Source: an uncultured beta proteobacterium (lineage in GTDB: Bacteria; Pseudomonadota; Gammaproteobacteria; Burkholderiales; Rhodocyclaceae). Taken from it: DNA of 64,000 nucleotides. A program made the position numbers and the translations under genes. Below the pieces are notes generated by a model. That model was not told the origin of the DNA, did not search any database, and saw nothing but the letters and a program-made list of their open reading frames with translations. The DNA lies in the NCBI GenBank assembly GCA_963823455.1, contig CAWGLO010000002.1:590706-654705 (forward strand). The letters are read 5' to 3'. Within the stretch, counting starts at the first letter, position 1. Each line of letters begins with the position of its first letter. Positions 4,800-20,726 of the stretch are shown here, piece after piece.

Positions 4800-5501
4800 T
4801 CAGTAGCCGCTGCAGTACTGAAAGTGCATCGGATCCTTGTTGGCGCCAGACCAGCGTCCGCCCCAGGTGAAACCGTAGCCTTCGAACAGCGCCACCAGCG
4901 CCGGGTCCATGTCACCGCGCGTGCCCATCGCGTTGGTGCGCGCGTTCAGGTCGATCGCGATGCCCCAGCTGTGCGTCGAGGGTTTGGACTGGCCGCGCTT
5001 CATGCGCCAGTTGTAGCCGCCCCCATAGGTCTTGACCGATTTCTGCAGGCCCTTGGCCACGATGTCTGCGAACACGTTCTGGAGCAAAGGCGCGATCAGC
5101 TTGTGGCAGCGGATGCTCGAAGCGCTGTGCTGCGGGGCCCAGTCGAGCGGCATCGCAAACGGCATCTTCGCCGACACCATGAACTGGCTCTCCCATTTTG
5201 GGTCGGGCCGGTCGCCATCGCCGACATAATTCCAGATGTTGCCGAAGGTCTGGACGATCGCCTGAAGCCTGTTCGGCGGCGCCGGCCAGGCGGGGACTTC
5301 GCGTACCGCGCGGGCGGCGACGCGCGGCGGATTCAGCTCGCGTACCGACGGGATGTGGATGGCCTGGCCGACGCCAATGTCCTTGGCGTCGAGCAGGCCG
5401 TTGTAGCCGGCAAGCGCGCTGGCAAGCTTGCGGTCACCGAGCAGCCGTTCAGCCACCTTGGCGAGCGTGTCACCTTTTTTCAGGATGTAGGGCTTGGCCA
5501 T
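4800..5501 (-). CDS. LysM domain + M15-family (VanY/M15_4-like) peptidoglycan peptidase, no signal peptide
   Basis: N-terminal LysM (YILKKGDTLAKVAERLLGD...GQAIHIP). C-terminal zinc ligands HSWGIAID and DPMHFQ. GAGGAG lies 8 nt upstream of the ATG at 5501; the track ORF extends to a GTG at 5540. Confidence 0.8.
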   Translation of the reverse strand: MAKPYILKKGDTLAKVAERLLGDRKLASALAGYNGLLDAKDIGVGQAIHIPSVRELNPPRVAARAVREVPAWPAPPNRLQAIVQTFGNIWNYVGDGDRPDPKWESQFMVSAKMPFAMPLDWAPQHSASSIRCHKLIAPLLQNVFADIVAKGLQKSVKTYGGGYNWRMKRGQSKPSTHSWGIAIDLNARTNAMGTRGDMDPALVALFEGYGFTWGGRWSGANKDPMHFQYCSGY

Positions 5502-5536: not shown

Positions 5537-5815
5537 TCACTTCTTGCTGCGGCGGGCCTCGCGCCGGGCTGGCGCAGCTACGGGCTCAGCGCCGTGAGGC
5601 GGCGCAGGCCGGTCCTCGCGTGGGCGAACACCGGGGCGGATACGCAGACAAAGTTCGATCAGGCGACTCGCATTGCGGTAGAGCGCCGCGTCGGACTCGG
5701 CCACCGCCAGGGCATCGCAGAAGCGCGACAGCAGTTCCATCTGCGAGACCACCGAGTCAAGCTCAGCGGGCTTGACGGTCACATTGGCGAGTGCCTGGGC
5801 ATAGGCTGCGGCCAC
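5537..5815 (-). CDS. probable C-terminal continuation of the 5763-11522 giant gene, separated by one frame break
   Basis: Its frame reads ...SGQAAFDVVAAAYAQALANV.. straight on from ..LIDGSLGQPG of the big ORF. The two ORFs overlap by 53 nt in different frames. Confidence 0.5.
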   Translation of the reverse strand: MAAAYAQALANVTVKPAELDSVVSQMELLSRFCDALAVAESDAALYRNASRLIELCLRIRPGVRPREDRPAPPHGAEPVAAPARREARRSKK

Positions 5816-8800
5816 GACGTCGAATGCGGCCTGCCCGGACTCCCGGCTGACCCAGACTGCCGTCGATCAGGCGTTCCACCAGCAGCGCCTCGGCCTGCAT
5901 CACGGCACCCCAAAAAGTCGGGCTGCGTGCAAAGCCGAGTTCGGCGCTGCGCCGGCACTGGCGCGCCAGTTCGATTGCCTCCGCCTGACCGGCCTCGTCA
6001 CGCTGCGGCATCAGCGATTCGAGGGCCAGTCGGTTGAGCGCCAGGTTGCTGGAGAACTGGCCGCCGCCCGGGCTGCCCTCGTCACGACCGTAGGCCGCGG
6101 CGCTCTCCCGCAACGCAGCGCGAAGCTCCTGGGCGGCGCTTGGTGCCAGCGACTCGGCCTTGGCCCGGTCTGCCGGCAGCGTTGCCTTGTCGGTGCGTAT
6201 GCGATCGGCTGCCAGGAGGCGCAACGCATACAAGTTCGCCTTGCGCTTGTGGGCGCTGCCCAGCAGCGCGCTGCGTTCAGGGTTGAAGGGCTTCTTCCCC
6301 TGCGCCGCCAGAAGACCTTCGAGCATGCGCAGACGGGTAATCGCCCCCTCGACCAAGGCCTCGGCCGATTCCGTCCCGCTCGCGCCCGACCGGATTTGCC
6401 CGGCCTTCACTGGACGCTTGGCGAGCCGGTCCTTGGCTGGAGCCGACTCGAAGCTTGCGCGGACCTCTTCCCGCGCGCGCTGCTCGCCCAGACGTGCCTC
6501 GACGTTGGCCAGCTTCTCGATGTCGTGGATCGGTACCGAGCCGCCCTTGTCCTCGGCCTGCACCGCGCGCAGCAGTGCCTCGCGCGCCTTGTCGAACTGC
6601 CCGAGTTCATACCAGGTCGCACCGAGCGCCGACTGCAGGCCCGGCACGTCCAGCCAGCCCGGCGGGCAGCGACTCTTCATCATCTCCTCGATGGCCTCGA
6701 CCCCGGCACGGCTGTCTCGGCCGTTCATGCGCTCGCTGCGGCGCGCCAGATCGGCGCGGGAACGGGCCAGTTCGTCCAGCAGTTCCTCGGGAGAGGCGAA
6801 AGGCGACCCGTCAGCCCCCGCCACCCCATCGGCACGTGGTTCAGCGCGCCAGGCCGGGTCGCCATAGGCCTGGAAGGCGCCCCAGGTGATGTCCTGCGAG
6901 TTGTTCTCCCAGACGGCGCGGCGTGCCGCGAACACCGCGTCGCCGAACGGGCGGCGGCGCTGTAGCAGTTCCTGGTAGAAGGTCTCGCCGAAGCGCTGCG
7001 CACCTTGGTCGTCGACGGCCCACCCGGCCACGACGACACAGCGCACACCGATATCGATTAGCTCGCGCGAGACGCTCGCCGCCAGCTTGTTGCCCTGCCG
7101 CCCGACGTCGACCGTTCCGAGATGGCAACAATTGAGGAACACCACATCGGGCACAACCTCCATCGCCTGCACTTCGGCGGCCGTGATGAGCAGACCGTCG
7201 GACAACAGCACGCCACTGCGATGGCGCCCGTCTGCGTGGCGCAGGCCGAACACCCCGTGGGCCGAAACGTGCAGGATGCGCCAGGGCCGGTGGTAAAGCG
7301 CTCCGAGCACGGTGCTCGCCGTGGCACCGCCGATGAGCGGTTTGACGTCATAGCCCATCGCGTTAAGCAGACGCGCCACCGACTCGGCCTCGGCCTGCGC
7401 GCCGGGCAGGTCCGGCGGATCGGACTCGATCTTGGCCTGCGGCGTGGAGAACGCCGCCGCGAAGCCGTTCACCGACGGGTTGCCGATTACCAGCGCAGTG
7501 CGCTCGATGTTCTGCCGCACCTGGCGACGGAACTGCGTCGATGACAGCTGGCGCACGACTGGCATACGCAGCGCGAACGGGCGCTTGTCGTCATCGCCGC
7601 GCTGCGGGTCGTCGGCGAGCATCAGCTCCCACGGCAAGTTGGCCGTGGCGCCGTCGACCACCAGGACCACCCGGTCAAGCTGGCGCGCCGCATCCTTGAA
7701 GTCGAGCGGTACCATCAGCTGGAACAGCATGCGGCCGAAGTCCTCGTTCCACACGGTGTCGTGAATCTGCTGGCGCACCAGGCGCTCGACCAGGCCCGGC
7801 TGGCGCTGCTGCAGCTGCGCCTCGGCGCGCGCGCGCTGGCCGACATAAAGGAAGCGCAGCGTATCGGCGAGTGCCGTGGCCGGGGCATCCCCCTGCCCGG
7901 TTGCGCCACGCGCGTCTTCGCCGTCGGCGGCGGTGACGATCAGACGCGGCCAGTAGCTCGCGCTGCGGCTGTCGAACAAGCGCTGGCGCATGCCCTCTCC
8001 GCGGTCGAGTTCGCGGCTGCACACGAGCTGGGTGTGTTGCTGCTCCGCCTGCGCGGCGAGCCGGCCGGACAGGCTGCGCAGCGCGTAGACCGCGGTGATC
8101 GCGGTATCGAGGTACAACTCGACGATGTCGAGCCGCGAGATGCGGATATTCAGGCGCGTCGTCTCGTAGAAGCGTGCGTTGGCCTCCATCACGCCGCGCA
8201 CCAGCGCCTCGACCGAGGCCTCGACGGTGAGATTGGCCGATGAGTTGTAGCCCAGCAGCAGGGCTGCGAGCGACACCTCGCGGTTATCCTTGCCGAGCAC
8301 ATCGATCACCTGCAGCAGGTAGCGCAGTGCGCCGGCGCGCACCGCCTCGGTGAGGTTGCTCGGGGTCAGTGCGCCGTCGTACCCGCCGAGGCCGGTCACC
8401 ACCGCCCCGCGCAGGCTCCCGCGCGCCCGTTCTGCCTCGTTGGGCGCGCGAAGCACCACCGTCGCAGTGCCTATCGGGCCGGCATACAGGCCCAGGCTGT
8501 GTCGCTCGCTCAGATCCCCCGCGAGCAGTTCGCGGTCGATCAGACCCTGCGGACCTGCGATCGGATCCTGCTCGTAGTGTCCCACCATGATTGGTTGGGC
8601 GAGGAAACGCAGGTCCTTGCACTGCACCCGGACCTCGAGCCGGCGCATGCGGCGCGGCGGCACGCGGTTGCGCAACGAGCCGCCGAGCAAAGCGCGGCCG
8701 ACCATGTCCGGATCGTCCGCGCTCGGCGGACCGGCGTCGTAGCTGACCGGCTGCGGCTGCTCGATAGCACGCGAGACCGGCGGCGCACTCAACAGCCGAC

Positions 8801-11522
8801 TTGTGACACCAGAGGTGAGCAGTTCCGCCAGCGCCGGGAAGTACTCCTTGGTGGCCGGCAGGTCGCCATGCTCGACCGGCATGTACAAGTACTGGCCAAT
8901 CCCGCCGATGCGGCCCGACTCCCAGGTCACCGTGCCGTCGCCGTGCGAGGTGCCGACCATCTTGAGCCGACCGCCCTCCTCGCGCACGCCGCACGGCGTA
9001 TTGCGCCCCACGCCGAACACATAGACGCTCTTCTTCTCGTAATCGGCTGGAAGCGACGGGCGTTGTGTCCCGTCCTGCGACCACAGCCAGGCGGCGGAGT
9101 CGAGCACCGCCTGGGAGGGCTTGCCGACCTTGCCGTTGCCGAACCAGAAGTCCTTGACCCTGGGCTGGAAATCGACCCAGGTCTGTGCCTTCTGGTAGTC
9201 GTAGACGCCCCCGCCGTCGCTCTGGCCCTGGAACATGTCCCTGAAACCGGGTTTGGGCAGCAACTGCAGCGCGCCCCTGAAGCCGGCGACGATGTCGAGT
9301 ACCTCTTGCATGCTGTGCGTCACGTCCAGCCGTACCAGCATGCGCAGCGTGTCGCCCTTGCCGATCAGGTTCTCGACCATCGAGTGCGCGCCCTGGTGCG
9401 GCGTGCCCAGCATCACCAGTCGTGCGCCGTCGCGCGCCATGAGCGCGTCCATCACCGGTCGGCGCTTGTGGATCGCGGCGCGCACCACCAATCCGCCCAT
9501 GCTGTGCGCCAGCAGGCGAATTGGCTGCTGCGTGCGCTTCATCAGCCGGTCGAGAAATTCCCCGAGCCGCTCGCCGAGCGCGTCCAGCGGCTGACGCCAG
9601 TCGTAGGGGAAGCGCTCGACGCGGTGGCTCACTGAGAGCGCCTTACACAGGTCGCCGTAGAGCATGCCGAACAAGTCCTCGGCCTCGATGCCCGGTTTGC
9701 CCCATTCGATCTTGCTCAGGCCGCCGGTCGCGATGTCGGCCGGGTCGAACCAGACGCGGTCCTTCCCATTCCGTTGCAGGTGCGATCCCATCACTCCGGG
9801 CAGCACGACGACCACTGGCCGGTCCGTCGCGAACACGTCACGCGCCGCGGCGGCGAGCGCCGCGGCGTAGTCCTGCGCGCTTGGAAGGGCATGGAATACA
9901 TCGAGCGCGGCCGGGTCGGGTTCGACCAGCCAGTCGCGCAGCGCCGAGCGCGTCCCGACGTTCGTGTAGTAGCGGAAGTGGGAGACGTCGGCACCGCGGT
10001 CGAAGAGCACTCGCGCGCCTGCGCGCGGCGCGATGCCGGCGAGCATGGCGGTGGTGTTGACCACCAGGTCGTTGTCCTCGCGGTCGAAGATCAGCGTGTC
10101 CGTGAGCAGCAGGCCGAGCCGCCTGAGCAGGTTGCCGCCCTGGATGTCCCCGGCGATCACCGACATCGCGAAGCCGGCGCGCACCTGCGCATCGCGCAGC
10201 AGGCGGGCCAGCGGCGAGTCTGGAAGCAGCGCCTCGATGCCGGGAACCAGATGGGGATTGGTGCGGTTCTTCGCGATCTCGATCACGACCCGCTTGAATG
10301 CGGCGTAGTACGGGCTGCCGAAGAAGAACGGCACCTGACCGATCAGCGTGAGCAGACCTGAAAGAAACAGGTCGAAGTTGCCGCTGGCGAGCTTGGTGCC
10401 GTTGGCCGGGCTCGCGGTGCGCACGTAGCGCTGAATGTTGAACTGTTTGTCGCGCAGGACGATGGCCAGCTCGCGAAGCTGCGCCCGGTGCTCGCGGTAG
10501 GCATCGTCGAGCTGCCGGGCCAAGGCCTTGGCAGCGTCGCTATCGGGGTCGGCATCGCCGGTGCCGGGGAGGTTCTTCGGCCGGGCAAAGGCGTCGATTT
10601 GCGCCTCGAAGTCCGTGAGGCACAGCAAGTCCGCCACCAGCCCGCCGCGCGAGTGCGAAACGAGGTTCAGGTGCGCACCCTTGGGCAGCGCACGGGCCAG
10701 GTGCAGGGCGTTCTCAACCGGGCTCTCGGACAGGGTACGATGCTCGAACGCGTAGATACCGCCGGTGAAGTGTCGATCGAGTGCGGACCACAGGTCGCGG
10801 TCCCCGGCGCGCAGCTCGCCGAAGCTGCCCAAAGAACTCGATCCGGTACCATGCACGAAAACCAGCATCGGCAGTTTGTCGGCCGCGGCCTGATCCAGCT
10901 CGTCCTGCCTCGGCGCTTCCAGGTCGTCGGCTTTGCCGCTCGCGCCAACCCAGCGGTACAGGCCTGGCTGCTCGACGAGGCGGCTTTCGATCGCCCACAT
11001 CAGCGCCTTGGTGCCGGCCCAGGTGATTCCCAGCTCAATCGGGGCCAGTCCCTTGTTCTTCAACTCATCGAGGGCGGCGTCGATGATCGGGTCGCTGGTC
11101 TCGCCGGCGACGATGGTGAAGACCTTGCTGACCAGGCCGCCCATCGCCTCGCCCAGACCTCGTCCGGGTGAGGCACCGGCGGCACGCAGTTTCTCGAACG
11201 GGATGGCGCCGTCCTCGATCCAGTCAGGATGGACGCGCTGCAGCGCGTCGAGCAAGCGCGCGGCACTGGTGATCAGGGTACTGCCGTCAGCCAGTTCGAG
11301 CACCACGACCTCGTCGGCCGCCGCCGCATGCTCGTGCGCCGCGGCGCCCTCGGCGCCGCGCGCCGCCGGGCCGACGTCATAGGTGCCGGTAGGACGAAAG
11401 TAGGACGCGGGAAGGAAGGGATCGGCCACCACGCCGGCGGCACGGCTCGCAACGGCGAGCAGCGGCGGCAGAACCGGCGTATCGGCCCGTCCGGTGATCC
11501 TGATCGGGACGGTCTGTGCCAT
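5763..11522 (-). CDS. giant multidomain protein: unknown N-terminus, alpha/beta-hydrolase, LCAT/PGAP1-like lipase, unknown middle region, CHAT protease, helical-repeat tail
   Basis: Motifs VSHSRGG (S291), LLAHSMGG (S674), SHGDGTV (H860), ILHVSAHG (H1422), FLNCCHLG (C1466) and VVAGWAVDD. GAGGAG SD upstream of the ATG at 11522. 1919 aa uninterrupted. Confidence 0.85.
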   Translation of the reverse strand: MAQTVPIRITGRADTPVLPPLLAVASRAAGVVADPFLPASYFRPTGTYDVGPAARGAEGAAAHEHAAAADEVVVLELADGSTLITSAARLLDALQRVHPDWIEDGAIPFEKLRAAGASPGRGLGEAMGGLVSKVFTIVAGETSDPIIDAALDELKNKGLAPIELGITWAGTKALMWAIESRLVEQPGLYRWVGASGKADDLEAPRQDELDQAAADKLPMLVFVHGTGSSSLGSFGELRAGDRDLWSALDRHFTGGIYAFEHRTLSESPVENALHLARALPKGAHLNLVSHSRGGLVADLLCLTDFEAQIDAFARPKNLPGTGDADPDSDAAKALARQLDDAYREHRAQLRELAIVLRDKQFNIQRYVRTASPANGTKLASGNFDLFLSGLLTLIGQVPFFFGSPYYAAFKRVVIEIAKNRTNPHLVPGIEALLPDSPLARLLRDAQVRAGFAMSVIAGDIQGGNLLRRLGLLLTDTLIFDREDNDLVVNTTAMLAGIAPRAGARVLFDRGADVSHFRYYTNVGTRSALRDWLVEPDPAALDVFHALPSAQDYAAALAAAARDVFATDRPVVVVLPGVMGSHLQRNGKDRVWFDPADIATGGLSKIEWGKPGIEAEDLFGMLYGDLCKALSVSHRVERFPYDWRQPLDALGERLGEFLDRLMKRTQQPIRLLAHSMGGLVVRAAIHKRRPVMDALMARDGARLVMLGTPHQGAHSMVENLIGKGDTLRMLVRLDVTHSMQEVLDIVAGFRGALQLLPKPGFRDMFQGQSDGGGVYDYQKAQTWVDFQPRVKDFWFGNGKVGKPSQAVLDSAAWLWSQDGTQRPSLPADYEKKSVYVFGVGRNTPCGVREEGGRLKMVGTSHGDGTVTWESGRIGGIGQYLYMPVEHGDLPATKEYFPALAELLTSGVTSRLLSAPPVSRAIEQPQPVSYDAGPPSADDPDMVGRALLGGSLRNRVPPRRMRRLEVRVQCKDLRFLAQPIMVGHYEQDPIAGPQGLIDRELLAGDLSERHSLGLYAGPIGTATVVLRAPNEAERARGSLRGAVVTGLGGYDGALTPSNLTEAVRAGALRYLLQVIDVLGKDNREVSLAALLLGYNSSANLTVEASVEALVRGVMEANARFYETTRLNIRISRLDIVELYLDTAITAVYALRSLSGRLAAQAEQQHTQLVCSRELDRGEGMRQRLFDSRSASYWPRLIVTAADGEDARGATGQGDAPATALADTLRFLYVGQRARAEAQLQQRQPGLVERLVRQQIHDTVWNEDFGRMLFQLMVPLDFKDAARQLDRVVLVVDGATANLPWELMLADDPQRGDDDKRPFALRMPVVRQLSSTQFRRQVRQNIERTALVIGNPSVNGFAAAFSTPQAKIESDPPDLPGAQAEAESVARLLNAMGYDVKPLIGGATASTVLGALYHRPWRILHVSAHGVFGLRHADGRHRSGVLLSDGLLITAAEVQAMEVVPDVVFLNCCHLGTVDVGRQGNKLAASVSRELIDIGVRCVVVAGWAVDDQGAQRFGETFYQELLQRRRPFGDAVFAARRAVWENNSQDITWGAFQAYGDPAWRAEPRADGVAGADGSPFASPEELLDELARSRADLARRSERMNGRDSRAGVEAIEEMMKSRCPPGWLDVPGLQSALGATWYELGQFDKAREALLRAVQAEDKGGSVPIHDIEKLANVEARLGEQRAREEVRASFESAPAKDRLAKRPVKAGQIRSGASGTESAEALVEGAITRLRMLEGLLAAQGKKPFNPERSALLGSAHKRKANLYALRLLAADRIRTDKATLPADRAKAESLAPSAAQELRAALRESAAAYGRDEGSPGGGQFSSNLALNRLALESLMPQRDEAGQAEAIELARQCRRSAELGFARSPTFWGAVMQAEALLVERLIDGSLGQPGVRAGRIRRRGRSLCPGTRQCDRQAR

Positions 11523-11686
11523 CGGAGGTCTCCTCGTTCTTGTCGGGCCCGTCGGACAACCGCAGCCCGCGCGCTGCGGGCAAATCTAGAGGCAGGTGTG
11601 GGTGTCAGCCGGCACGTATCGCTTGGCCATTTCAACCCCGCGCTTCGATCCCTTGCGGCAGCGCGACGCGATTGCGCCGGCCGGGC

Positions 11687-12589
<903 letters not shown>

Positions 12590-13080
12590 TCTCGCTCTCC
12601 TTCGACTTGGTCGCGCATAGCGCGGACGAACCATAGGCGCGCCGGACCCAGGAAGATCAACGTCCCCCTTATGCTATCAACCGGGAATGTATCGCTGCAT
12701 CATCGAGCGGTCAATCGGACCGGCGCCGCGGAAGTGGTCGCAGCTGACCGGACGATACCGGACCGGTTCCCGAATCATCGCGATACTGCGCTTGATGCAG
12801 TGGTCGTGGTGACGATCCCATATGCCGGGCACGATTATCGGTTTGCAGCACATCGGAATGGCTCGTCCTTTCGGCCGATGCGGGTGATCACCGGGCCGTC
12901 ACGAACTTCGGCTTTCGGGGGCGATGCAGACGCTCAAGTCGTCGCCTGGAACGACACGCGAGCGACCGGAGTTGGCCGCAATCGCCCATCTGGTACGGGC
13001 CGGAGTGGCGAACCCTGGCGGACGGTGCGCGGGGCACACATCGTCCCGACCCTGGCACGGTGGGCCTTGCGCTGCGTGCA

Positions 13081-13479
13081 TCAGCCAGACCGAATGCCAC
13101 TCGCGCGGCCGATCGACAGGAACTCGCCGAGCATGGTGAGCACCCGGCAAACCTTGCAGTCGGAGTCGAAGAAGAACGTTTCCGCAGCGAGCCTTCCGCC
13201 GACACCCTTGTAGTACAGGGTGACGCTGTCTCTCACGAATAGTGTGGTGACGCGCTCGAAGTGCAAATCGGGAATCAAGCGACGTGCGCTGTCCCAATAG
13301 TCGGCTAACGCCGCCTTGCCCCGGAGAATGTCGACAGACTCGCCCGTGACTTCGTGCGTGGCAGGTGCCCATACCTCGAAGTCGTCGGAGACGCGAGAAA
13401 GAAATCGATCCGGATCATGGTTGTTCCATGCCTCGATCCATTCATTCGGGAATTCTCGTACAACCTGTTGATCGATCAT
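13081..13479 (-). CDS. SnoaL/NTF2-like fold protein
   Basis: The pattern EWIEAWNNHDPDRFLSRVSDDFE...LRGKAAL..YW is typical of the SnoaL-like polyketide cyclase/NTF2 family. ATG at 13479. Confidence 0.6.
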   Translation of the reverse strand: MIDQQVVREFPNEWIEAWNNHDPDRFLSRVSDDFEVWAPATHEVTGESVDILRGKAALADYWDSARRLIPDLHFERVTTLFVRDSVTLYYKGVGGRLAAETFFFDSDCKVCRVLTMLGEFLSIGRASGIRSG

Positions 13480-14089
13480 GGATGGCTCCCGCATCTCGGA
13501 AAGTGCTTCGTGGACTTCGCACCGCACAAACCGCCGAGCTTGATTCCTTCAGACTGCCTTCGGCCGACTGCCCGAAACGTCGTCAGGGCTGGGCGCCCAC
13601 CCGCTCGGGGTGAGCGTCCGGCCTCGGCTTGGCGAAACGATGGCGGAGGCACTCCCGACCGGCCCTTGATATCAATGCGCCATGTGGTTGCGCTATGCAC
13701 ACAGCGTGCCACCTGATCCATCTCAAACCTCTGACACGGTGTGCCAGGGGCAATGGCTCGAAGGCGTGAATAGACAGCCGGGGAAAAGCAGTTTGGGGGG
13801 GCGGCCTGAAAGTCGAATGTCCCCACCCAAATTTCCCCGGTCTTGGGGAATTTCCCCACGCCATATACGCCCCAGAATCAACGGCGGAAGGAGCGAGAGT
13901 CAGCACGGCACGGTTCGGCCCCATCGGCCGCCGCTTGTTGTCTAACTGGAGGCCGCCCTCGGGCGATAACCGGCCCTGCGATGGCCATCGTCCCTGACTC
14001 CAAGAAAACGCTCAAGGCGTTGCGATTGACTTTCCGGCCCGGATCTCGTGGCACGGCTGCATCACCCAGGCGCAGCCCAGCGGCACCGG

Positions 14090-14518
14090 TCAATGCTTCA
14101 GTGAAAACGCAGTATCCAAAGCCATGCGCAATCCGTTCTCGTCAACGGTGCCCTCCAGAACGCCCCGACGCGTTCCATCCGGACCAAAGAACACCAGAAT
14201 GCTGTCGTTGACCTGCTGTTCACGGACAAACGCCTTGCCGATTTCCGTGTCGACATCGGCCACCAGCAATTCGACCTTTCCGGCATAGTCCGGGCGGACT
14301 TGATTCAGCGCCGACATCAGGTTCTGGCTGCGTACCGTATTCTTGTTGTGAACGAGTACGGCAACGTTGGAGCCCCGGCCGATCCTGGACAGGTCGTCGC
14401 TGAATCCTTGCGGTAGGCGCGTAATGAAAAAGGCCAGGAACGCTACGGTGGCCGCAATGGCGATCAAGGTGCTGCGCAGCGCGAAGCCGGTCGATGTGCG
14501 ATTCATTGCTTCGGCCAT
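14090..14518 (-). CDS. membrane-anchored thioredoxin-fold-like protein without a CXXC motif
   Basis: One N-terminal TM segment (LIAIAATVAFLAFFI) followed by a thioredoxin-like beta-alpha pattern (VAVLVHNKN...LLVADVD...ILVFFGPDG). No cysteines. Confidence 0.45.
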   Translation of the reverse strand: MAEAMNRTSTGFALRSTLIAIAATVAFLAFFITRLPQGFSDDLSRIGRGSNVAVLVHNKNTVRSQNLMSALNQVRPDYAGKVELLVADVDTEIGKAFVREQQVNDSILVFFGPDGTRRGVLEGTVDENGLRMALDTAFSLKH

Positions 14519-14536
14519 GTCCTACACCGACTGCGA

Positions 14537-14851
14537 TCAACGTTGGTCTGCATCGTCGCGCGAGTCCTCTCGGATCACTTCTCCCTCGATCACGCGCTCG
14601 GCCGCGGGCCGCTCGCGCATCTGCTCCCGGATCTGCCTGCGAAGATCCCTCGTCTTCCACCACAGGTAACCCAAGACCAACAACCCGCCGGTCACCACGA
14701 TCGCGAACACCAGCAACGAAAACATGAACCCCGCGACCAGCAACACGGCACCCACTGCAATCGTCACGACCGTGACCAGAAATCCCGGTGCATGAACGGG
14801 ACGGCTGCCGTCACCCCCCGCGAGTCGCGGTCGTTCCTCCTCCATTCGCAT
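14537..14851 (-). CDS. small two-TM membrane protein
   Basis: ATG at 14851 was verified in the DNA. Two hydrophobic helices (FLVTVVTIAVGAVLLVAGFMF, LLVFAIVVTGGLLVLGYLWW) and a charged tail. It lies directly upstream of 14090-14518. Confidence 0.45.
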   Translation of the reverse strand: MRMEEERPRLAGGDGSRPVHAPGFLVTVVTIAVGAVLLVAGFMFSLLVFAIVVTGGLLVLGYLWWKTRDLRRQIREQMRERPAAERVIEGEVIREDSRDDADQR

Positions 14852-15391
14852 CCCGTTCCTTCCCTCAGGTCCCGGCGCAACCGGGTGTGGCGCGCATCGT
14901 ACCGTATTGGCGGCCGGCGGGATGGCTTGGTTTCCCCGACGACCGGCACACACGCAATCGATACGACCCTCAGCGCAAGCGCCGGACCCTTCGAATCCTT
15001 CAGTAGCGGCGCGCACCGCCGCCGGCAACGCGCGTTGGTGCGCGTCACAATCCGGGAGAAAGGGACGCAACCAATTCAGCGGCGTGCCGCCCGCAAGCCA
15101 TGCTGCCGGTCCTCGCCCTCTTGGCGGCGCTCGAAGTCCTGCGGGAAAGCGAACAACTCCACGACGCACGTGGTGGCACGTGTAGCCGACATCGTCGGCG
15201 GACGCACGGATCACAAGGAACGCAGTGCGCCGCAGCACTATGCAGGGCATTGACTCGCTGTCCCGTTATCGTGTCCAATGCGCGCAGCGACACGCTTCAA
15301 GATGTGAGAACGATGGTGAATGCCCGTTGTTTCGTTCTTGATGTCGGGCCGTAAGGGGATTCTCCCGGACAACCTTCAACAGGAAACGACA

Positions 15392-15595
15392 ATGGCAACT
15401 GGCAAGGTCAAGTGGTTCAATGATGCAAAGGGTTTCGGTTTCATTACGCCGGACGGCGGCGGCGAGGATCTGTTCGCTCACTTCTCCGCGATCCAGGCGG
15501 GCGGCTTCAAGTCGCTCAAGGAAGGGCAGACGGTGTCCTTCGACGTGACGACCGGTCCCAAGGGCAAGCAGGCGTCGAATATCAAGCCCGAGTAA
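15392..15595 (+). CDS. cspA: cold-shock protein, CspA family
   Basis: [34 protein letters not shown] (RNP1/RNP2 motifs), 67 aa. Confidence 0.95.
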
Positions 15596-15610
15596 GCCTC
15601 CCGCCAAGCC

Positions 15611-15645
15611 CAGGAGCCCCGGCAAGCCGGGGCTCCTGCATTTGC
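15611..15645 (+). terminator. probable intrinsic terminator of cspA
   Basis: Perfect 12-bp stem CAGGAGCCCCGG / CCGGGGCTCCTG with loop CAAG, then CATTTG, 16 nt after the stop. Confidence 0.6.
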
Positions 15646-15985
15646 GCGCGGTGTAAGCTCGGCTTCCGGGAACAGACAGGTCACGCACCTGACCTGGATA
15701 TCAACACCCAAAGGGTTTTGATCGGCAGCGCGAAGCCTGGCTGCCAAGTCCCGTTCGAGATCGTCGGTTGGCTCCCTTAACCAGGCCGGCAGACGCTCCG
15801 CCCCGTCCCGAGCGACTGCCGATTCGATGTCGCGCCGCGCTAAGCAGTGTGTTCAAGGTGGCCGGGACAGCAAGCCGGTACGGCAGTTTAGCGGATGCCG
15901 CCGGAGTTGGAACTCACCCGGGACAGCATGGGAACGGCCGCAGCATTCGGGAATAATGACCCTTTGCGGTGAGGGGAGCACAATC

Positions 15986-16423
15986 ATGAGGGCCTCAGGA
16001 AGGACGCGGCGGTCGTACATGCGCCATCCGAGTGGGATTCCGATCGAGATCACCGCCGCAACCGGCGCCGATGCAGGGCGGCGCAGGCTCAGGGATGTCG
16101 GCCTCGGCGGGCTCGCCTGCGAGTCGGCTCAACCGCTTCCGCCCGGAGCCATGGTGAGCGTGCGCATCCCCATTGTGTTCCCGCCGTTCGAGACGCGCGC
16201 CCGTGTCGTCTGGTGCCAGGGACGCGGTGCCGGCTACGAGCTGGGGATGCAGTTTGTCGCCCCCAGGGACGCCTACGCGGCACGCATGGTCGAGCAAATC
16301 TGCCACATCGAGGACTACCGCAACCGTGTGCGCGAAATCGAAGGCCGGGCGCTCGACGCGGAGCAAGCGGCGCTGGAATGGATCAGCAAATATGCGGATG
16401 GATTTCCCGGCTCGCAGGCATAG
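15986..16423 (+). CDS. PilZ domain protein
   Basis: RRSYMRHP...(RxxxR) and D/NxSxxG-like DVGLGGLACES motifs typical of PilZ. Start chosen at the internal ATG 15986 and is uncertain. Confidence 0.65.
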   Translation: MRASGRTRRSYMRHPSGIPIEITAATGADAGRRRLRDVGLGGLACESAQPLPPGAMVSVRIPIVFPPFETRARVVWCQGRGAGYELGMQFVAPRDAYAARMVEQICHIEDYRNRVREIEGRALDAEQAALEWISKYADGFPGSQA

Positions 16424-17053
16424 GGTTCGCCGCAATCCCGGATTCCGCCGAAGTAGCGCAGCAGCCGGTGCGACTGTCGAGCCACACTGTCCCGGCTAGC
16501 GATGGAATAGCAGTGAAGGCCGAACCGCGGGAGACCACCTACACCGTGTCAGAGCAGAGACCCCGGTCGCCCAACCGCAAGCCTACTTGTGCGAAGATCT
16601 CCTGGCGGTGCACGATGGCGCCTTGCAGGCACTCGCCGGTCGGTCGTCTCGATCATCGCCAGTTCCACTCTGGCAACGTCAACAGTGTTCCTGCTCTCGT
16701 CTCCTCCAACCAGTGCCGTCATGCCGGCGAGTCGTATGACGTGATGTTCTCTCCTATGCACTGCAGACGCGTACGATGCGAGACAGATCCCGGGCAGACG
16801 GTCGAGTTCGTGCGAGGCGTGATCAGATTTCCACGCATGGTGTCCGGCAGGAACCCCCCAGCTCGGTAGTGGCAACTGACCACGTCGATGCCGACGCTTG
16901 CGCTATCACCGATGAATCGGTCACCGTTCGCGGGGGCCGGCCCTGCGGGCGAACGTTGCACCGGGATTGCTGCGGCGCACTGGAAGACGGGTCGTCTCCT
17001 TCGTGGTGACGCATAGCCTAACGGCTGGGCGGCCGAGCGAGCCCCGGGGCCTT

Positions 17054-19225
17054 TCATGGCGGTGCGGCTGCGTATATCTTGTGCACGTACTCGTCCAGCA
17101 TACGCGTTGCGCAGAACCGCGGTCCTATGGTGCGCAGGGATGCCTTGATGCGCGCGATCCAGCCGCGCGGGATGCCCGCGGCATCGCGGTCGTAGAACAA
17201 GGGTATGACTTCCCTTTCCAGCAGCTCATACAAGGCTGCCGCGTCGCGGGCATCCTTGAACGCGGCGTTGGCATCCTCCGTGCCGTCGATTGCCCAGCCG
17301 TTGCTGCCGTCGTAGGCTTCGGCCCACCAGCCATCGAGCACGCTTAGGTTCAGCACGCCGTTGAATGCGGCTTTGATGCCGCTGGTGCCGCTCGCTTCCA
17401 GGGGCGGCCGCGGCAGGTTGATCCAGACGCCGCACCCGTTCGTCAGAATGCTTGCCAAGCCCATGTCGTAATCCTCGAGGAAGGCGACCCGGCCGCCGAG
17501 GCGCGGGTCGGACTTCAGATTGAACATGCTGACCAGGACGCGCTTGGCGTCGTCATCCCGGGGGTGAGCCTTGCCGGCGAACAGCAGCTGTATGGGGTGG
17601 GGCGCCTCCAGCAGGCGCAGCATCCTGTCCGGATCCTGGATCAGGAGATGAAGCCGCTTGTAGGTCGCCAGCCGGCGTGCGAATCCCAGCGTCAGCACCT
17701 CGCGATCGAAGGTGTTGGCGGCCTTCCTGGCGTACTGCATTGCATCGCCGCGCGTGAGCCGGTCGGTCACGGTCTTGGACTTGACCCAATGCTCCAGCCA
17801 TTTCGCGTACTCCTGCCGCACAGCCCACAATCGTTCGTCTGGGATCTTGTCAACGCCGTTCCACGTGGCGGGGTCGGTGACCCGCTCCTGGGCATGCCAG
17901 CCTGGTGCGAGGTAATCATCCAGGAGACGACGCATGAGCGGAGATATCCAGCTCGGCAGGTGGACGCCGTTGGTGACGTGAGTGATAGGTACCTCTTCGG
18001 CAGAGCGGCCGGGAAACAGCCCCTGCCACATGCGTCGCGAGATGCCACCATGGATCTTGCTGACGCCGTTGGTCGAGCGGCTCATGCGCATCGCGAGGGC
18101 GGTCATGCCAAAGGGTTCGTCGCGACTGGCGGCGTTGAAACGACCCAGCGAGAGGAAACGTTCCATGTCGCTGCCCAGTCGCCGCGACAGGTCGGGGAAA
18201 ACCGTAGAAATCTCGTCGACGGAGTAGGCCTCATTGCCTGCCGGCACGGGGGTGTGGGTGGTAAAGACGACTCGTCGGCGCACCTTCTCGCGGGCTTCAT
18301 CGAAGCTCGCGCCGTGCTCCATCTCCTGGGCGATCAGCTCCATCGTGGCCGCGGCCGGGTGCCCTTCGTTCATTTGGATGAGGGACGGGGCAATCCCCAA
18401 TGCATCCAGGACGCGTATTCCGCCAATGCCGAGCAGTGCATACTGGGCCAGGCGAATCTGACGATTGCCTTCATAGAGGCGAGCGGTGACGAAGCGCTGG
18501 CGCGGCGTGTTCTCGGGCACTTCGGCGTCGAGGAGAAAGAGCGGGACTCTTCCAACTTCGACCCGCCATACGCTGACCGACACGTCCTCGTCCCAGATCG
18601 GTACCTTGACTGTGAGCGGACGGCCGTCCTCGCGCGTGATCATGACGCACGGGCGGCGCTCGGGATCGGTTTCGTACCAGTACTCGTGCTGCCAGCCCCC
18701 GGCATCGACACGCTGGTGGAAGTAGCCCTTCCGGTACATCAGTCCGACGCCGACCATCGGCAAGGCCCGATCCGACGCTTCCTTCAAGATGTCGCCAGCC
18801 AAGACGCCGAGGCCGCCCGAATAGACTGGCAGAGAGCGATGCAGACCAAATTCGGCGCAGAAGAATGCGATGGGGTGTTCCAAAGAGGCCCCCCCGTCCT
18901 CGCGCGGCGATCGCGCCAGTTGCTCCTCCAAGGCATCGCGCAGGGCCTCCGCGCGCGCAACCAGCGACAGGTCCGATGCTGCCCGTTCCAGCGAATCCTG
19001 AGATGTTTCGTGCAGAAATCGCACCGGATTCTGTCGGCACAAACGCCAGCGGTGGCTGTCAACGGCGCGAAACACCCGCTCACCGTCCGGGTGCCAAACC
19101 CAATGGAAGTTGTAGGCGGCCCGCGCCAGCGGCGCGAGCCGCGCAGGAATGTAGCGGGCGAGCGCCTGCGCCGCCCGCCGCACGTCCTTTGCGCCGTTCC
19201 CGACGCCTTCGTTTCTCTCGTGCAT
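17054..19225 (-). CDS. glgP: alpha-glucan phosphorylase (GT35, maltodextrin/glycogen phosphorylase type)
   Basis: The pattern NFHWVWHPDG..., FFCAEFG, SGGLGVLAGD, TNGVH and ASGTSGIKAAFNGVLNLS matches the alpha-glucan family phosphorylase. The track ORF runs to 19318; the ATG at 19225 is preferred. Confidence 0.85.
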   Translation of the reverse strand: MHERNEGVGNGAKDVRRAAQALARYIPARLAPLARAAYNFHWVWHPDGERVFRAVDSHRWRLCRQNPVRFLHETSQDSLERAASDLSLVARAEALRDALEEQLARSPREDGGASLEHPIAFFCAEFGLHRSLPVYSGGLGVLAGDILKEASDRALPMVGVGLMYRKGYFHQRVDAGGWQHEYWYETDPERRPCVMITREDGRPLTVKVPIWDEDVSVSVWRVEVGRVPLFLLDAEVPENTPRQRFVTARLYEGNRQIRLAQYALLGIGGIRVLDALGIAPSLIQMNEGHPAAATMELIAQEMEHGASFDEAREKVRRRVVFTTHTPVPAGNEAYSVDEISTVFPDLSRRLGSDMERFLSLGRFNAASRDEPFGMTALAMRMSRSTNGVSKIHGGISRRMWQGLFPGRSAEEVPITHVTNGVHLPSWISPLMRRLLDDYLAPGWHAQERVTDPATWNGVDKIPDERLWAVRQEYAKWLEHWVKSKTVTDRLTRGDAMQYARKAANTFDREVLTLGFARRLATYKRLHLLIQDPDRMLRLLEAPHPIQLLFAGKAHPRDDDAKRVLVSMFNLKSDPRLGGRVAFLEDYDMGLASILTNGCGVWINLPRPPLEASGTSGIKAAFNGVLNLSVLDGWWAEAYDGSNGWAIDGTEDANAAFKDARDAAALYELLEREVIPLFYDRDAAGIPRGWIARIKASLRTIGPRFCATRMLDEYVHKIYAAAPP

Positions 19226-19506
19226 GGCCCATCCCCTCCTGATAAGCCGATCAGCGCATGGCAATCTTATGCTCACCGATGCCAGTACTCCAGTCCCCGG
19301 CGAGGAATGTCTGGACAAAACCGGCGAAGATCCCGTTATCCAACGTGGGCCTTACCGGGGACGACATCGAAGCGCGTCGGCGAGCGGGTGGCGGCGATGG
19401 CGGCGCAGCGCCTGGCGTGCCGCCGCGTTGTACCGAAACAAACATGGTCGATGCCCATGCGGCCTGACACAATCTTCGGCTCAGCGACGCAGGAGGGACG
19501 CCGCCG

Positions 19507-20079
19507 ATGCTTGTGCAGGACCTGCATATTCATACCATCTGTTCGCGCGGGGACAGCGCGGTCGTGGCCGAGCAATCCGTCGAACTTGTCGCACAGGTCC
19601 GACATGCCAGAATCGTCGGCATCAGCGATCATTTGGAATACCTGGTGGATGGGCGGATCGATGCCTACGCCGATGCAGTGCGGCAGGCGGGTTTGCGCGT
19701 GGGCACCGAGGTCAACGGGCACACCTGGGTTGCCGCCGCGCGGGAGGTGCCCGTCGAGTACTATGTCGTGCACTGCTACGACACCGATGCTGACTACGCG
19801 GCGCTGGAACGTCTGCTGGATACGGGGAAGCCGGTCATCATCGCTCGCCCGGACGTCCTTGGTACTCGGCTTGAGCGCGTCCCACCTGCCTGCCTGGTAG
19901 AGATCAACAACCGATATATCTGGCGCGGCAACTGGCGGGCCTACTACGCGCCCCACACCCACCGCTTCCGGTTTGTGCTGAGTTCGGACGCGCACCAGCC
20001 CAATTGGCTCAATCAGACCATCGCCCGGTATGTCGCGGATCAACTTGGGATCGAAGAAAGCCTTGTATTCGGGGCCTAA
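19507..20079 (+). CDS. PHP-domain metal-dependent phosphoesterase
   Basis: DLHIHTICSRGDS ... GISDHLEY ... SSDAH histidine motifs of the PHP family. Confidence 0.65.
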   Translation: MLVQDLHIHTICSRGDSAVVAEQSVELVAQVRHARIVGISDHLEYLVDGRIDAYADAVRQAGLRVGTEVNGHTWVAAAREVPVEYYVVHCYDTDADYAALERLLDTGKPVIIARPDVLGTRLERVPPACLVEINNRYIWRGNWRAYYAPHTHRFRFVLSSDAHQPNWLNQTIARYVADQLGIEESLVFGA

Positions 20080-20654
20080 CCGGATAGCGTTTTGTAAGAC
20101 GATCGACTTACACCGTGCGCCAGTGTCGGCCGAATCGCCGGAATTGGTTTGGCTCGCCCTACCGAAGGGAGATTCCGCCGAGACCGGTCACGGGAGACGT
20201 ATCCCGATAGCAGTCGGTTAGTTGGCGTGCGGCATTTCCACGCGCGGGATTGGAGCGATTCCCGCCCGAACGAAAGCGCGGTCGATTGAGATTATTTGTC
20301 CGCCAGCCAGCAGGATTCGGCTCATGTCGCCATCACGTACGCGGCGCCGCAGTGGAATCGCTGGCACATACTCGAGGGGCACCCCTGTCGGCTCTTCGAG
20401 ACGATCGCGTGTTTCGCCCTGTCGCTCGGTGCCGGGAACTCTGGACGGTGCATGACCGAGGACGTGAGAAGCGCGGCCTCTGGTACGGCTGATGAACTGC
20501 AGACCAGCCCGGTCAAACGGGTCGACGCAGCCGCCGCCGAGACTTGGGCCAGGTCCTGTGAGACCGAGCGCTGCCTGACGGTTTCTGCGGCCCTGGGGAC
20601 GAGCGCCGCTTCCGTGGTGGAATTGGGGAAACGGCGGGCGCCGCCGCCTCTGCC

Positions 20655-20683
20655 TGTCCCTCTCCCACGAGGGGAGAGGGAGT
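20655..20683. repeat. core hairpin of repeat family 1 (CCCTCTCCC-N5-GGGAGAGGG), 44 nt downstream of the actP stop
   Basis: Perfect 9-bp inverted repeat at 20658-20680. Confidence 0.7.
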
Positions 20684-20726
20684 CTGCCCATCGAACCGCG
20701 GGACCGGTCGGCCCGGCGTCCGCCGA

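Follow-up and report, generated by a model that had tools for sequence, protein, structure and literature searches.

A large protein joining two alpha/beta-hydrolases to a CHAT protease, encoded beside a metacaspase-type gene: a candidate bacterial cell-death or defence module

The minus strand of the window (the whole 64,000-nucleotide stretch of DNA analysed here) encodes a protein of ~1,995 residues in which two alpha/beta-hydrolases precede a CHAT protease core, and a small metacaspase-type gene lies directly upstream. The two genes most likely form an uncharacterised cell-death or defence module. More specifically, and only tentatively, we favour a cytoplasmic two-gene "executioner" of the bacterial conflict or programmed-cell-death type, protease-gated and membrane-attacking. 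No published account of the twin-hydrolase-CHAT architecture was found in a literature search. The features are as follows.

11687..12589, minus strand: metacaspase/orthocaspase-type Peptidase_C14 gene, directly upstream (Pfam E 9e-21)
5537..11522, minus strand: full gene of the ~1,995-aa multidomain protein (listed ORF plus frame-shifted conserved C-terminus)
10878..11522, minus strand: N-terminal beta-rich domain, aa 1-215 (AF2 model)
9843..10877, minus strand: hydrolase 1, aa ~216-560, DUF7379 alpha/beta-hydrolase (Pfam E 2e-27)
8733..9830, minus strand: hydrolase 2, aa ~565-930, LCAT/PGAP1/DUF676-type lipase-like alpha/beta-hydrolase (Pfam)
8637..8684, minus strand: basic inter-module linker, aa 947-962, GGSLRNRVPPRRMRRL (conservation, pLDDT)
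8040..8645, minus strand: middle domain, aa ~960-1161, three-layer alpha/beta/alpha, macro-like predicted fold (AF2, Foldseek)
6843..8033, minus strand: CHAT protease, aa ~1164-1560 (Pfam E 8e-36, profile positions 3-289 of 289)
5537..6797, minus strand: C-terminal helical region, aa ~1576-1995 (TPR-S, conservation profile)
5841..5847, minus strand: 2-nt deletion (frameshift) truncating the annotated ORF (blastn against locus L005; conserved C-terminus in the next frame)
4800..5501, minus strand: LysM + Peptidase_M15_4 gene, endolysin-like, downstream (Pfam)

The open reading frame at 5763..11522 (minus strand, 1919 codons, GC3 0.85) is a real gene, with more than 1,340 homologues in the homologue search; the best 120 of these are collinear with it, at a query coverage of 78-100% and 61-80% identity. 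Twin-hydrolase CHAT proteins occur in at least 319 reference species, and those inspected are mostly Burkholderiales. The gene does not end at 5763, as the initial annotation had assumed, because that stop results from the loss of 2 nt around 5841-5847. The deletion shows in blastn against locus L005, which is 98% identical (CAGCCCGGCGAG -> CAGCC-GG-GAG); the final ~25 residues of the ORF are consequently out of frame, and the conserved C-terminus of ~100 residues runs in the next frame down to a TGA at 5539..5537. If the deletion were genuine, as the frameshift relative to L005 and all homologues might indicate, the gene in this genome would be a decaying pseudogene without its conserved C-terminal ~100 residues. 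This is unlikely: the other 1,894 codons are intact with a normal codon bias, an unrelated SSF symporter gene (20727-22633) is likewise split over two frames, and L005, the nearest relative, carries a frameshift of its own at a different place. This pattern fits indel errors of long-read assembly.

Conservation of the catalytic residues was counted among 65 species-level orthologues. In hydrolase 1, the nucleophile Ser291 of VSHSRGG lies at the codon first read for it (10650-10652) and, like His515 (9978-9980), is present in all 65; Asp459 (10146-10148) is invariant, Asp485 (10068-10070) is found in 64, and either may be the catalytic acid. The initial annotation called this domain a lipase. 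The alpha/beta-hydrolase part of that claim stands, with lipases as the nearest structures, but the top Foldseek matches, Geobacillus lipases (E 3e-4, TM ~0.4), make the domain only weakly lipase-like. The domain has a large helical cap with a hydrophobic segment at 383-401 (Kyte-Doolittle maximum window 1.62, at residue 383). Residues 1-215, described at first as unrecognisable, are so by sequence (zero matches in the Pfam search), but in the AF2 model of residues 1-570 (pLDDT 81.6, pTM 0.86) they form a beta-rich domain, predicted to lie against hydrolase 1. The Foldseek matches listed for this model are all alpha/beta-hydrolases, with no fold match for the N-terminal domain.

For hydrolase 2, the proposed LCAT/PGAP1 relationship is borne out by Pfam (LCAT 6e-6, PGAP1 1e-5, both above gathering scores; DUF676 is also above its cut-off). 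Ser674 of LLAHSMGG (9501-9503) is confirmed and occurs in 65/65 orthologues. His860 of TSHGDGTV (8943-8945), proposed as catalytic, is ruled out as an active-site residue by its poor conservation (His in 5 of 65, Arg in 48). Asp862 of GDGTV (8937-8939) and His885 of HGDL (8868-8870) are each present in all 65, and the putative triad is Ser674-Asp862-His885. The domain carries the motifs PGVMGSHL, YDWRQP, AHSMGG and GDGTV. In profile comparison with the PDB, the type VI secretion effector Tle4/TplE is matched (4R1D, E 0.008), LPLA2 and LCAT are aligned motif by motif, and GDGTV falls on the GDGTV stretch of LPLA2. A PG-x-GS oxyanion stretch, YDWR, an AHSMGG nucleophile elbow and a GDGTV acid motif are common to this domain, LCAT/LPLA2 (group XV PLA2) and Tle4, and judged by these motifs the designation of hydrolase 2 as a probable lipase is well supported, although the PDB E-values are marginal (0.008-0.9). 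Unlike these enzymes, hydrolase 2 lies inside a 2,000-aa protein, and secretion context and an immunity gene are absent.

The region ~950-1270 had also been set aside as unrecognisable. This holds by sequence (residues ~960-1161 have no match in Pfam or the PDB) but not by predicted structure, in which a macro-like domain is followed by CHAT. The model of the middle domain (pLDDT mostly 78-96) resembles TTHA0132 (2dx6, E 2e-5, TMt 0.74), macroH2A1.1, PARP9 macro 2 and the LAP N-domain in Foldseek; the domain is found in 1,363 clusters and, within this family, invariably N-terminal to CHAT. The CHAT assignment itself is upheld by Pfam, and the codons of His1422 in ILHVSAHG (7257-7259) and Cys1466 in NCCHLG (7125-7127) are correct, the dyad being conserved in 65/65 orthologues. 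The region probably comprises a pseudo-protease sub-domain and an active caspase-like domain, and its loop at 1201-1225 is variable and insertion-rich. Structural comparison ranks Csx29 first (E 6e-13 to 8eex_B), followed by separase, DdvA and SAVED-CHAT (8tl0, E 6e-6), and the modelled domain is accordingly described here as a predicted separase/Csx29-type CHAT. The "TPR-like" C-terminus does consist of helical repeats, which can be refined to Pfam TPR-S with lineage-specific insertions, more helices and a variable Arg/Lys/Pro-rich tail. The window protein scores 19-21 bits for TPR-S, short of the cut-off of 27.6; 8 of 17 diverse orthologues are positive (best E 5.7e-11), and the family is precomputed (PF20308) in many homologues. 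The habit of CHAT domains of being fused to TPR or NTPase sensors offers no contrast and does not distinguish this protein, because it has a TPR-S sensor-type domain at its own C-terminus.

The head and the core divide at the linker. Stand-alone macro-like-CHAT-TPR-S proteins of 900-1,025 aa start at the equivalent of residues ~955-962, directly past the linker, and lack the Arg-rich motif; the lipases are an N-terminal addition on a CHAT-TPR-S core. In fused proteins the linker has the consensus GGSxRNRVPPRxKRRLEV, with Arg at 951, 953, 957, 960 and 961 in 55-61 of the 65 orthologues, and its pLDDT is below 50 at model residues 18-27, which predicts disorder. Residues 947-962 are a candidate proteolytic release site.

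The neighbouring orthocaspase is real (11687..12634, minus strand): the ORF opens at 12634, and the start is probably Met16 at 12589. The His of its dyad belongs to SGHGG (conserved in 62/63 orthologues) and the Cys to DSCHSG (63/63). The protein is ~60% identical over its full length to GSU0716 of Geobacter sulfurreducens (PDB 3BIJ; phmmer E 1e-83), a bacterial metacaspase-like C14 protein, and is matched by the PADLOC "caspase" model (E 5e-9), while PADLOC defence models gave zero matches to the big protein. Metacaspases and orthocaspases cleave after Arg or Lys. Of 80 related loci, 69 have a C14 gene immediately upstream of the big gene and in the same orientation, and one is adjacent also in a 36%-identical relative (L088), whereas some loci lack it (L001, L018, L042, L043, L079, L084, L086). 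The GSU0716-like family is very large (at least 6,898 matches), and in three other lineages its members have no adjoining CHAT-lipase gene.

In the mechanism that we infer, the C14 protease would be the product of the first gene, and the second would supply an effector head (the N-domain with the DUF7379 Ser-hydrolase, then the LCAT/Tle4-like Ser-Asp-His phospholipase-type hydrolase), tethered by the conserved, disordered, Arg-rich linker to a regulatory and protease core of macro-like domain, CHAT Cys-protease and TPR-S repeat sensor. At rest, the core would keep the lipase head inactive. A trigger sensed via TPR-S and/or the macro-like domain would switch CHAT on; cleavage at the basic linker, by CHAT itself or via the basic-residue-specific metacaspase (compare SAVED-CHAT acting on PCaspase), would free or activate the twin lipases, whose hydrolysis of membrane phospholipids would be lethal to the cell or arrest it. 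The initial proposal that the lipases are cargo activated or released by the protease fits the stand-alone cores, the disordered Arg-rich linker and the upstream metacaspase-type gene.

Several known systems are comparable in part. Csx29/TPR-CHAT of type III-E CRISPR (Craspase), like separase, is a His-Cys CHAT protease fused to TPR-type repeats, and in Craspase the protease is gated by a sensing partner. However, its repeats are N-terminal whereas TPR-S is C-terminal here, the Cas7-11/CRISPR context is absent here, the macro-like and twin-hydrolase modules are extra, and the Craspase substrate is Csx30. In type III-B CRISPR, the SAVED-CHAT gene adjoins a small C14 caspase-like gene, and CHAT cleaves and activates this PCaspase (Steens et al., 10.1101/2023.06.23.546230; 10.1101/2024.10.24.620036); in contrast, the present protein has no SAVED domain, cyclic-oligoadenylate source or CRISPR locus, its sensors would be TPR-S and the macro-like domain, and lipases are added. 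In VMAP/MoxR-vWA ternary systems, a caspase-superfamily peptidase is obligatorily coupled to an alpha/beta-hydrolase gene as predicted joint effectors, the hydrolases being predicted to act on membrane lipids (Kaur et al., 2020, PMC7159879; PMC8195603). MoxR, vWA and VMAP are absent here, hydrolases and CHAT share one chain, and the likeness is at the alpha/beta-hydrolase level. By analogy only, a Macro domain in type II Thoeris perceives TIR-made His-ADPR and switches the effector on; the middle domain here is macro-like by fold only, and the window has no TIR gene.

The same gene pairing can be read as a protease cascade without cargo release, in which sensor-activated CHAT would cleave the C14 pro-caspase, which would degrade cell proteins, the hydrolases staying attached and either acting in parallel or providing membrane anchors or co-effectors that a conformational change or oligomerisation would switch on. 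The conserved CHAT and C14 pairing, the SAVED-CHAT/PCaspase precedent, the compactness of the N-domain and hydrolase 1 as one unit (pTM 0.86) and a hydrophobic cap segment with the potential for membrane insertion argue for it. However, it leaves the conserved, basic, disordered junction motif, missing from stand-alone cores, unexplained, and part of the family has no caspase neighbour; we regard it as doubtful.

In MARTX toxins a CPD occurs together with an ABH phospholipase A1 domain; the clan-CD protease, once activated by a small molecule, cleaves linkers and so sets the alpha/beta-hydrolase phospholipase free. An exported or injected multi-effector toxin of this kind, autoprocessing in the target cell with the caspase and the LysM-M15 protein as fellow toxins, is very unlikely here. 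In its favour, Tle4/TplE is the best PDB sequence match of hydrolase 2, GSU0716-like caspases in other phyla adjoin barnase/barstar, phospholipase C, papain-like, nuclease or phage-tail-like genes, and peptidoglycan-hydrolase genes recur nearby. However, RTX repeats and a C80 CPD are absent (the resemblance is analogy only), neither a signal peptide nor a strong TM segment was found in the big protein, secretion-system, immunity and chaperone genes are not conserved alongside at the 80 loci, and C-terminal TPR-S and TIR-type neighbours are characteristic of systems that sense within the cell.

The executioner module that we favour is also consistent with its surroundings, which vary among the 80 loci around the constant caspase and CHAT-hydrolase pair, a pattern typical of mobile conflict modules: no neighbour besides the caspase is conserved, every other one occurring in at most 16 of 80 loci, and TIR-like/TPR-S and TIR-CHASE2 neighbours recur in several clades. 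Counting against this module are the housekeeping flanks in the window, the lack of a PADLOC match for the big protein, the weak lipase likeness of hydrolase 1, the loci without a caspase, the toxin-like genes beside GSU0716-like caspases elsewhere, which could indicate offensive weaponry, and, if real, the frameshift of this copy. The least probable reading is a housekeeping or developmental role (such as controlled remodelling of membrane lipids, or autolysis that has nothing to do with invaders, with the proteases as maturation or turnover controls), for which the chromosomal setting among housekeeping genes in the window rather than a defence island, strong conservation (61-80% identity) in many Burkholderiales genera and the want of a PADLOC model speak, but against which stand the varying neighbourhood with the caspase alone conserved, the TPR-S, TIR and CHASE2 companions and an architecture that parallels predicted conflict systems.

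The LysM-M15 gene begins ~35 nt past the true stop of the big gene and may be co-transcribed with it here; no signal peptide was found by eye at its N-terminus. It is downstream in just 6 of 80 loci and is thus not a conserved partner. Peptidoglycan-hydrolase genes lie nearby at several loci: in the window, L079 (GH19), L091 and L092.

The large gene and the caspase gene beside it constitute a two-gene cassette in variable surroundings, because the caspase is the immediate upstream neighbour, with the same orientation, in 69 of the 80 fetched loci, while every other neighbour family occurs in 16 loci at most. Relatives of the large protein are found in at least 319 reference species (scanned with one genome per GTDB species), and the family includes the wastewater genera Accumulibacter, Rubrivivax and Roseateles.

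Features of the cassette and its surroundings in the window
11687-12589, minus strand (ORF opening at 12634): the caspase, a Peptidase_C14 metacaspase-type gene
11570-11586, minus strand: GC-rich inverted repeat GCCCGCAGCGCGCGGGC in the 164-nt gap between caspase and large gene, with no T-tract and not called as a terminator
5763-11522, minus strand: the large ORF as it reads in the window, 1,919 codons, GC3 0.85 in a window of 65-69% GC; N-domain, hydrolase 1, hydrolase 2, predicted macro-like domain, CHAT and TPR-S
~5841-5847, minus strand: 2-nt deletion relative to L005, a 98%-identical locus
4800-5501, minus strand: LysM + Peptidase_M15_4 (endolysin-like) gene
20727-22633, minus strand: SSF (sodium:solute symporter) gene, split over two overlapping frames

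The gene recognized in the initial annotation is real, with more than 1,340 database homologues, and every motif quoted there is found at the codon assigned to it. The 120 best listed homologues are collinear with the protein over most or all of its length (78-100% query coverage, 61-80% identity) and are mostly 1,970-2,060 aa long; the best listed ones belong to Rubrivivax, Ideonella, Roseateles/Paucibacter and Piscinibacter, and none of them has a more specific name than 'CHAT domain-containing protein'. The 3' end had been misplaced at the stop at 5763. The last ~25 residues before it (…GVRAGRIRRRGRSLCPGTRQCDRQAR, stop) align with no homologue, and it is the next frame that encodes the conserved ~100-aa C-terminus (…SGQAAFDVVAAAYAQALANVTVKPAELDSVVSQMELLSRFCDAL…RRSKK, stop), up to a TGA at 5539..5537. 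The 2-nt deletion (CAGCCCGGCGAG to CAGCC-GG-GAG) shortens the ORF; since the window is 2 nt short of L005 and the conserved C-terminus lies in the next frame, the full gene is 5537..11522 and encodes ~1,995 aa. The deletion is probably an assembly error, because the unrelated SSF gene is also frame-split (SSF Pfam profile positions 1-169 in 21575-22633, 180-406 in 20727-22358) and the large gene of L005 is itself frameshifted at a different place, near codon 1310. The SSF split, as the second frameshift in the window, suggests that long-read assembly introduced indel errors. Alternatively, the deletion may be a real, recent truncation.

Two serine-hydrolase domains had been read from the DNA, and both match Pfam families above the gathering scores (DUF7379 and LCAT/PGAP1), with invariant nucleophiles.

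Conservation of active-site residues in 65 species-level orthologues drawn from the 80 genome loci
Ser291, hydrolase 1: 65/65
Asp485, hydrolase 1: 64/65
His515, hydrolase 1: 65/65
Ser674, hydrolase 2: 65/65
Asp862, hydrolase 2: 65/65
His885, hydrolase 2: 65/65
His860, hydrolase 2: His in 5/65, Arg in 48/65
His1422 and Cys1466, CHAT: each 65/65

Hydrolase 1 combines a DUF7379 (PF24096) match (E 2e-27, 96.7 bits against a cut-off of 33; aa 220-301 and further stretches), a conserved Ser and His, and an alpha/beta-hydrolase fold. In the AF2 model of residues 1-570 (pLDDT 81.6, pTM 0.86), a beta-rich domain (residues 1-215) packs on hydrolase 1, whose long helical cap includes the protein's most hydrophobic segment. 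That segment, FDLFLSGLLTLIGQVPFFF (aa 383-401, nt ~10320-10376; hydropathy 1.62), is highly conserved and could be a membrane-inserting lid. Among solved structures, Geobacillus family-type lipases and various esterases come closest; because these Foldseek matches are weak (E 3e-4, TM ~0.4), the domain is named an alpha/beta-hydrolase, possibly a lipase. Its acid residue is ambiguous between Asp485, which is situated in a low-confidence loop within an NDLVV motif that presumably resembles PGAP1/DUF676 lipases, and the invariant Asp459, which ends the strand that typically carries the acid in alpha/beta-hydrolases.

Hydrolase 2 matches LCAT (PF02450, 26.1 bits against a cut-off of 21), PGAP1 (PF07819, 25.5 against 24.3) and DUF676 (23 against 20.3) at E 6e-6 to 6e-5, covering just ~85 residues around the nucleophile (aa 636-720). 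In a profile-to-PDB search, its PGVMGSHL, YDWRQP, AHSMGG and GDGTV motifs align with those of lysosomal phospholipase A2 and LCAT, and the best match, 4R1D chain A, is marginal (E 0.008). The 4R1D structure shows the type VI phospholipase effector Tle4 (TplE) in complex with Tli4 (TplEi) (PMC5611513). Because of this motif alignment and the 65/65 conservation, the triad is assigned as Ser674-Asp862-His885, accompanied by the family-typical AHSMG, GDGTV and His after the last strand. His860, which the initial annotation had included in the lipase signature (TSHGDGTV), was dropped as the catalytic His, being His in so few orthologues; Asp862 and His885 are invariant instead. At the sequence level, hydrolase 2 is LCAT/PGAP1-like and a predicted lipase.

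The CHAT domain (PF12770, clan CD caspase-like; aa 1262-1555) matches profile positions 3-289 of 289 with 124.5 bits against a cut-off of 24 (E 8e-36), and its dyad, as originally read, is invariant in 99 homologues as well as in the 65 orthologues. Conservation across homologues, the lack of which the initial annotation named as a refutation, therefore holds for Ser291, Ser674, His1422 and Cys1466 alike. The AF2 model of residues 930-1575 (pLDDT 78.4) matches Csx29/TPR-CHAT (E 6e-13), separase, the CHAT anti-sigma factor DdvA and SAVED-CHAT in Foldseek, with E 6e-13 to 1e-9 for the separase/Csx29-like fold, pointing to a putative Cys-protease of the separase/Csx29 type. The AF2 alignments were built from full-length database homologues and so span little diversity (at least 59% identity).

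The CHAT of Csx29 comprises a ~128-aa pseudo-protease part and a ~200-aa active part in one contiguous sheet (10.1101/2022.08.17.504292). A degenerate CHAT duplicate in the middle region was rejected, as hhalign of 65-sequence profiles (957-1200 against CHAT) gave a probability of 0.1%. Since the Csx29 pseudo-protease is ~128 aa and contiguous and the 957-1200 profile is unrelated to CHAT, the pseudo-protease part is placed in the model at aa ~1164-1290, and aa ~960-1161 would form a separate macro-like alpha/beta/alpha domain. About 190 residues of the predicted model match four independent macro-type structures in Foldseek (E 2e-5 to 1e-4, TMt 0.58-0.74): TTHA0132 (2dx6; E 2e-5, TMt 0.74), macroH2A1.1, PARP9 macro 2 and the leucyl-aminopeptidase N-domain. 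Pfam Macro is absent at E<=10 in 14 members, and the PDB profile search returned only noise. The domain thus has a modelled macro fold but lies outside the Macro family by sequence. Of the regions initially described as unrecognisable, 1-215 and ~950-1270 are still unmatched by sequence, but structure prediction gives them a beta-rich and a macro-like domain, respectively.

The C-terminal region had been described as TPR-like, and at the family level it is assigned to TPR-S (PF20308), which matches at E<=0.01 in 8 of 17 diverse orthologues (best E 5.7e-11) and in the precomputed annotation of many homologues; the window protein itself stays below the cut-off (19.1-21.4 bits against 27.6; aa 1644-1811, broken by an insertion). 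Further helices and a variable basic tail follow. Searches with the whole protein found nothing in NCBIfam and no family at E<=1 in PADLOC-DB v2.

A profile of the middle domain matched 1,363 clusters among 1.84 billion cluster representatives. Members of 1,700-2,190 aa align collinearly with the window protein, at identities that fall to ~31%. Matches of 1,100-1,300 aa were rejected as alternative architectures, being collinear fragments that start mid-protein; the forms taken as stand-alone were limited to ~900-1,025-aa proteins that have an N-terminus of their own and an unrelated gene upstream. These begin, after short N-termini of their own, at window residues ~955-962 and consist of the middle domain, CHAT and TPR-S only. 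At least one of them (P0184, locus L082) is a genuine stand-alone form, because the gene upstream is unrelated and divergently transcribed. The search for cleavage-site-like linkers proposed in the initial annotation yielded one candidate, the conserved basic segment 947-962 at this junction. In fused proteins it reads GGSxRNRVPPRxKRRLEV, is predicted to be disordered and keeps Arg at five positions in 55-61 of 65 orthologues; the stand-alone core proteins lack the Arg-rich motif.

The neighbouring orthocaspase noted initially is confirmed by a Peptidase_C14 match (E 9e-21, 75.1 bits against a cut-off of 21.4), SGHGG and DSCHSG motifs and a dyad conserved in 62/63 (His) and 63/63 (Cys) orthologues. 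It is ~60% identical to GSU0716 (PDB 3BIJ, E 1e-83), and its kinship with the metacaspases of yeast, plants and trypanosomes, which are Arg/Lys-specific, is clear. The generic 'caspase' model of PADLOC matches this gene alone, not the large protein. A scan gave weak evidence of a promoter-like site upstream of the caspase and, equally weakly, found no terminator-like sites on the minus strand between the two genes. The caspase is still present beside a 36%-identical relative (L088) and has no counterpart at L084. At L001 (Ideonella sp. YS5; 6418-9960), the caspase position, 41 nt upstream of the large gene, is taken by a 1,180-aa protein that matches nothing in Pfam.

The reading we tentatively favour, though at less than even confidence, is that a sensor-gated protease frees or activates twin lipases against the membrane, causing conflict-type cell death or arrest. 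TPR-S and/or the macro-like domain would gate CHAT; CHAT, or the Arg/Lys-specific metacaspase partner, would carry out proteolysis, perhaps in a cascade like that from SAVED-CHAT to PCaspase; and a cut at the junction would free or activate the lipases, which would attack membrane phospholipids in a conflict setting. Composition, four intact and conserved nucleophile systems, conserved metacaspase partner, independent core and basic disordered junction are established, and we infer the gating, the cut and the lipid attack. In VMAP conflict systems, caspase-superfamily domains are always accompanied by an alpha/beta-hydrolase gene, and these hydrolases are predicted to hydrolyse membrane lipids (PMC7159879, PMC8195603); the protease-lipase model agrees with both. 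The hypothesis is sharply testable, because four catalytic nucleophiles can be mutated and there is one candidate cleavage linker. A protease cascade without lipase release is possible, if doubtful.

A more specific version of the lipase-release model, which we consider unlikely, has the modelled macro-like domain recognise, as its receptor, a second messenger derived from a nucleotide or from NAD; ligand and TPR-S would switch on CHAT, and CHAT and the metacaspase would cut the basic linker, releasing two phospholipases onto the cell's own membrane as a single-chain 'protease fuse'. If the domain binds such a signal, TIR-type signalling would be linked to CHAT proteases. TIR-domain genes recur beside relatives of the large protein: a TIR-like/TPR-S/MAP3K_TRAF_bd gene (~435-670 aa) lies just 3' of the large gene in ~10 loci (among them L003, L004, L030, L031, L037, L041, L044, L063, L075), Accumulibacter included, and likewise in distant relatives (L086:11556-12911; L088:6229-7536). 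The window has neither this gene nor a separate gene for its C-terminal part. In the long version, that part (~190 aa) has a GAAGGD-type motif, which we take to resemble SLOG domains, and at nine other loci it is encoded on its own, by a gene of ~200 aa. TIR-CHASE2, together with a FecR-domain gene, lies beside the large gene at L042:6546-9730, where it replaces the absent caspase, and at L010 and L014, where the caspase is still directly upstream; at L086:2434-4368, TIR-CHASE2 adjoins the large gene and the caspase is absent.

An exported toxin of MARTX-like or T6SS-like type is more unlikely still. The toxin-like company of GSU0716-type caspases elsewhere speaks for it, but no secretion signal, secretion-system context or immunity gene was found. 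GSU0716-like caspases have at least 6,898 database relatives, and their constant pairing with CHAT-lipase proteins proved untrue in three other lineages. In other phyla they adjoin barnase and barstar (L090), phage-tail-like baseplate genes (L091), or a papain-like C1 peptidase, an Exo_endo_phos nuclease/phosphatase and a Zn phospholipase C (L092). A caspase-barstar fusion (P0275) is also among the matches. An adjacent immunity gene or T6SS (VgrG/PAAR) context, as would be expected of a Tle4-type T6SS effector, is not conserved beside the large gene in the 80 loci. A housekeeping role in lipid metabolism or autolysis is the least probable reading.

Caspase-like proteases run bacterial immunity in Craspase, SAVED-CHAT/PCaspase, type IV Thoeris and the gasdermin proteases, with protein cleavage, pore formation or transcriptional switches as known outputs. 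The lipase-release model, if true, would wire a membrane-lipid-destroying output to protease and sensor in one polypeptide, and the protease-fuse version would give caspase-based immunity a new, lipid-targeting executioner arm. Unlike SAVED-CHAT/PCaspase of type III CRISPR, the large protein has no SAVED domain in the Pfam search, and the neighbours examined, both in the window and at the loci, included no CRISPR/cas genes that were seen. Each domain family is already known, and CHAT-TPR fusions, CHAT-caspase cascades and hydrolase-caspase pairings are published. The particular fusion seen here matches no PADLOC model, and no description of it or of its gene pair was found in the literature on DUF7379, TPR-S with CHAT, or CHAT with lipase/hydrolase. 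No functional characterisation of the GSU0716/3BIJ caspase family was found, and the cassette offers a possible physiological partner context for part of it.

The LysM-M15 gene starts ~35 nt past the true stop of the large gene and has no obvious signal peptide; that TGA shares bases with a GTG at 5540 (aaGTGA). The LysM-M15 gene was rejected as a system component, being downstream in just 6 of 80 loci. Peptidoglycan-hydrolase genes of other families lie near relatives or GSU0716-like caspases (GH19 at L079, M48-LysM at L091, GH46 + PG_binding at L092). On the other side of the cassette, window positions 12600-22400 have GC of 0.62-0.65 and GC3 of 0.70-0.78, both below the rest of the window, and contain SnoaL-like, PilZ and glycogen-phosphorylase-like genes and several unassignable ORFs.
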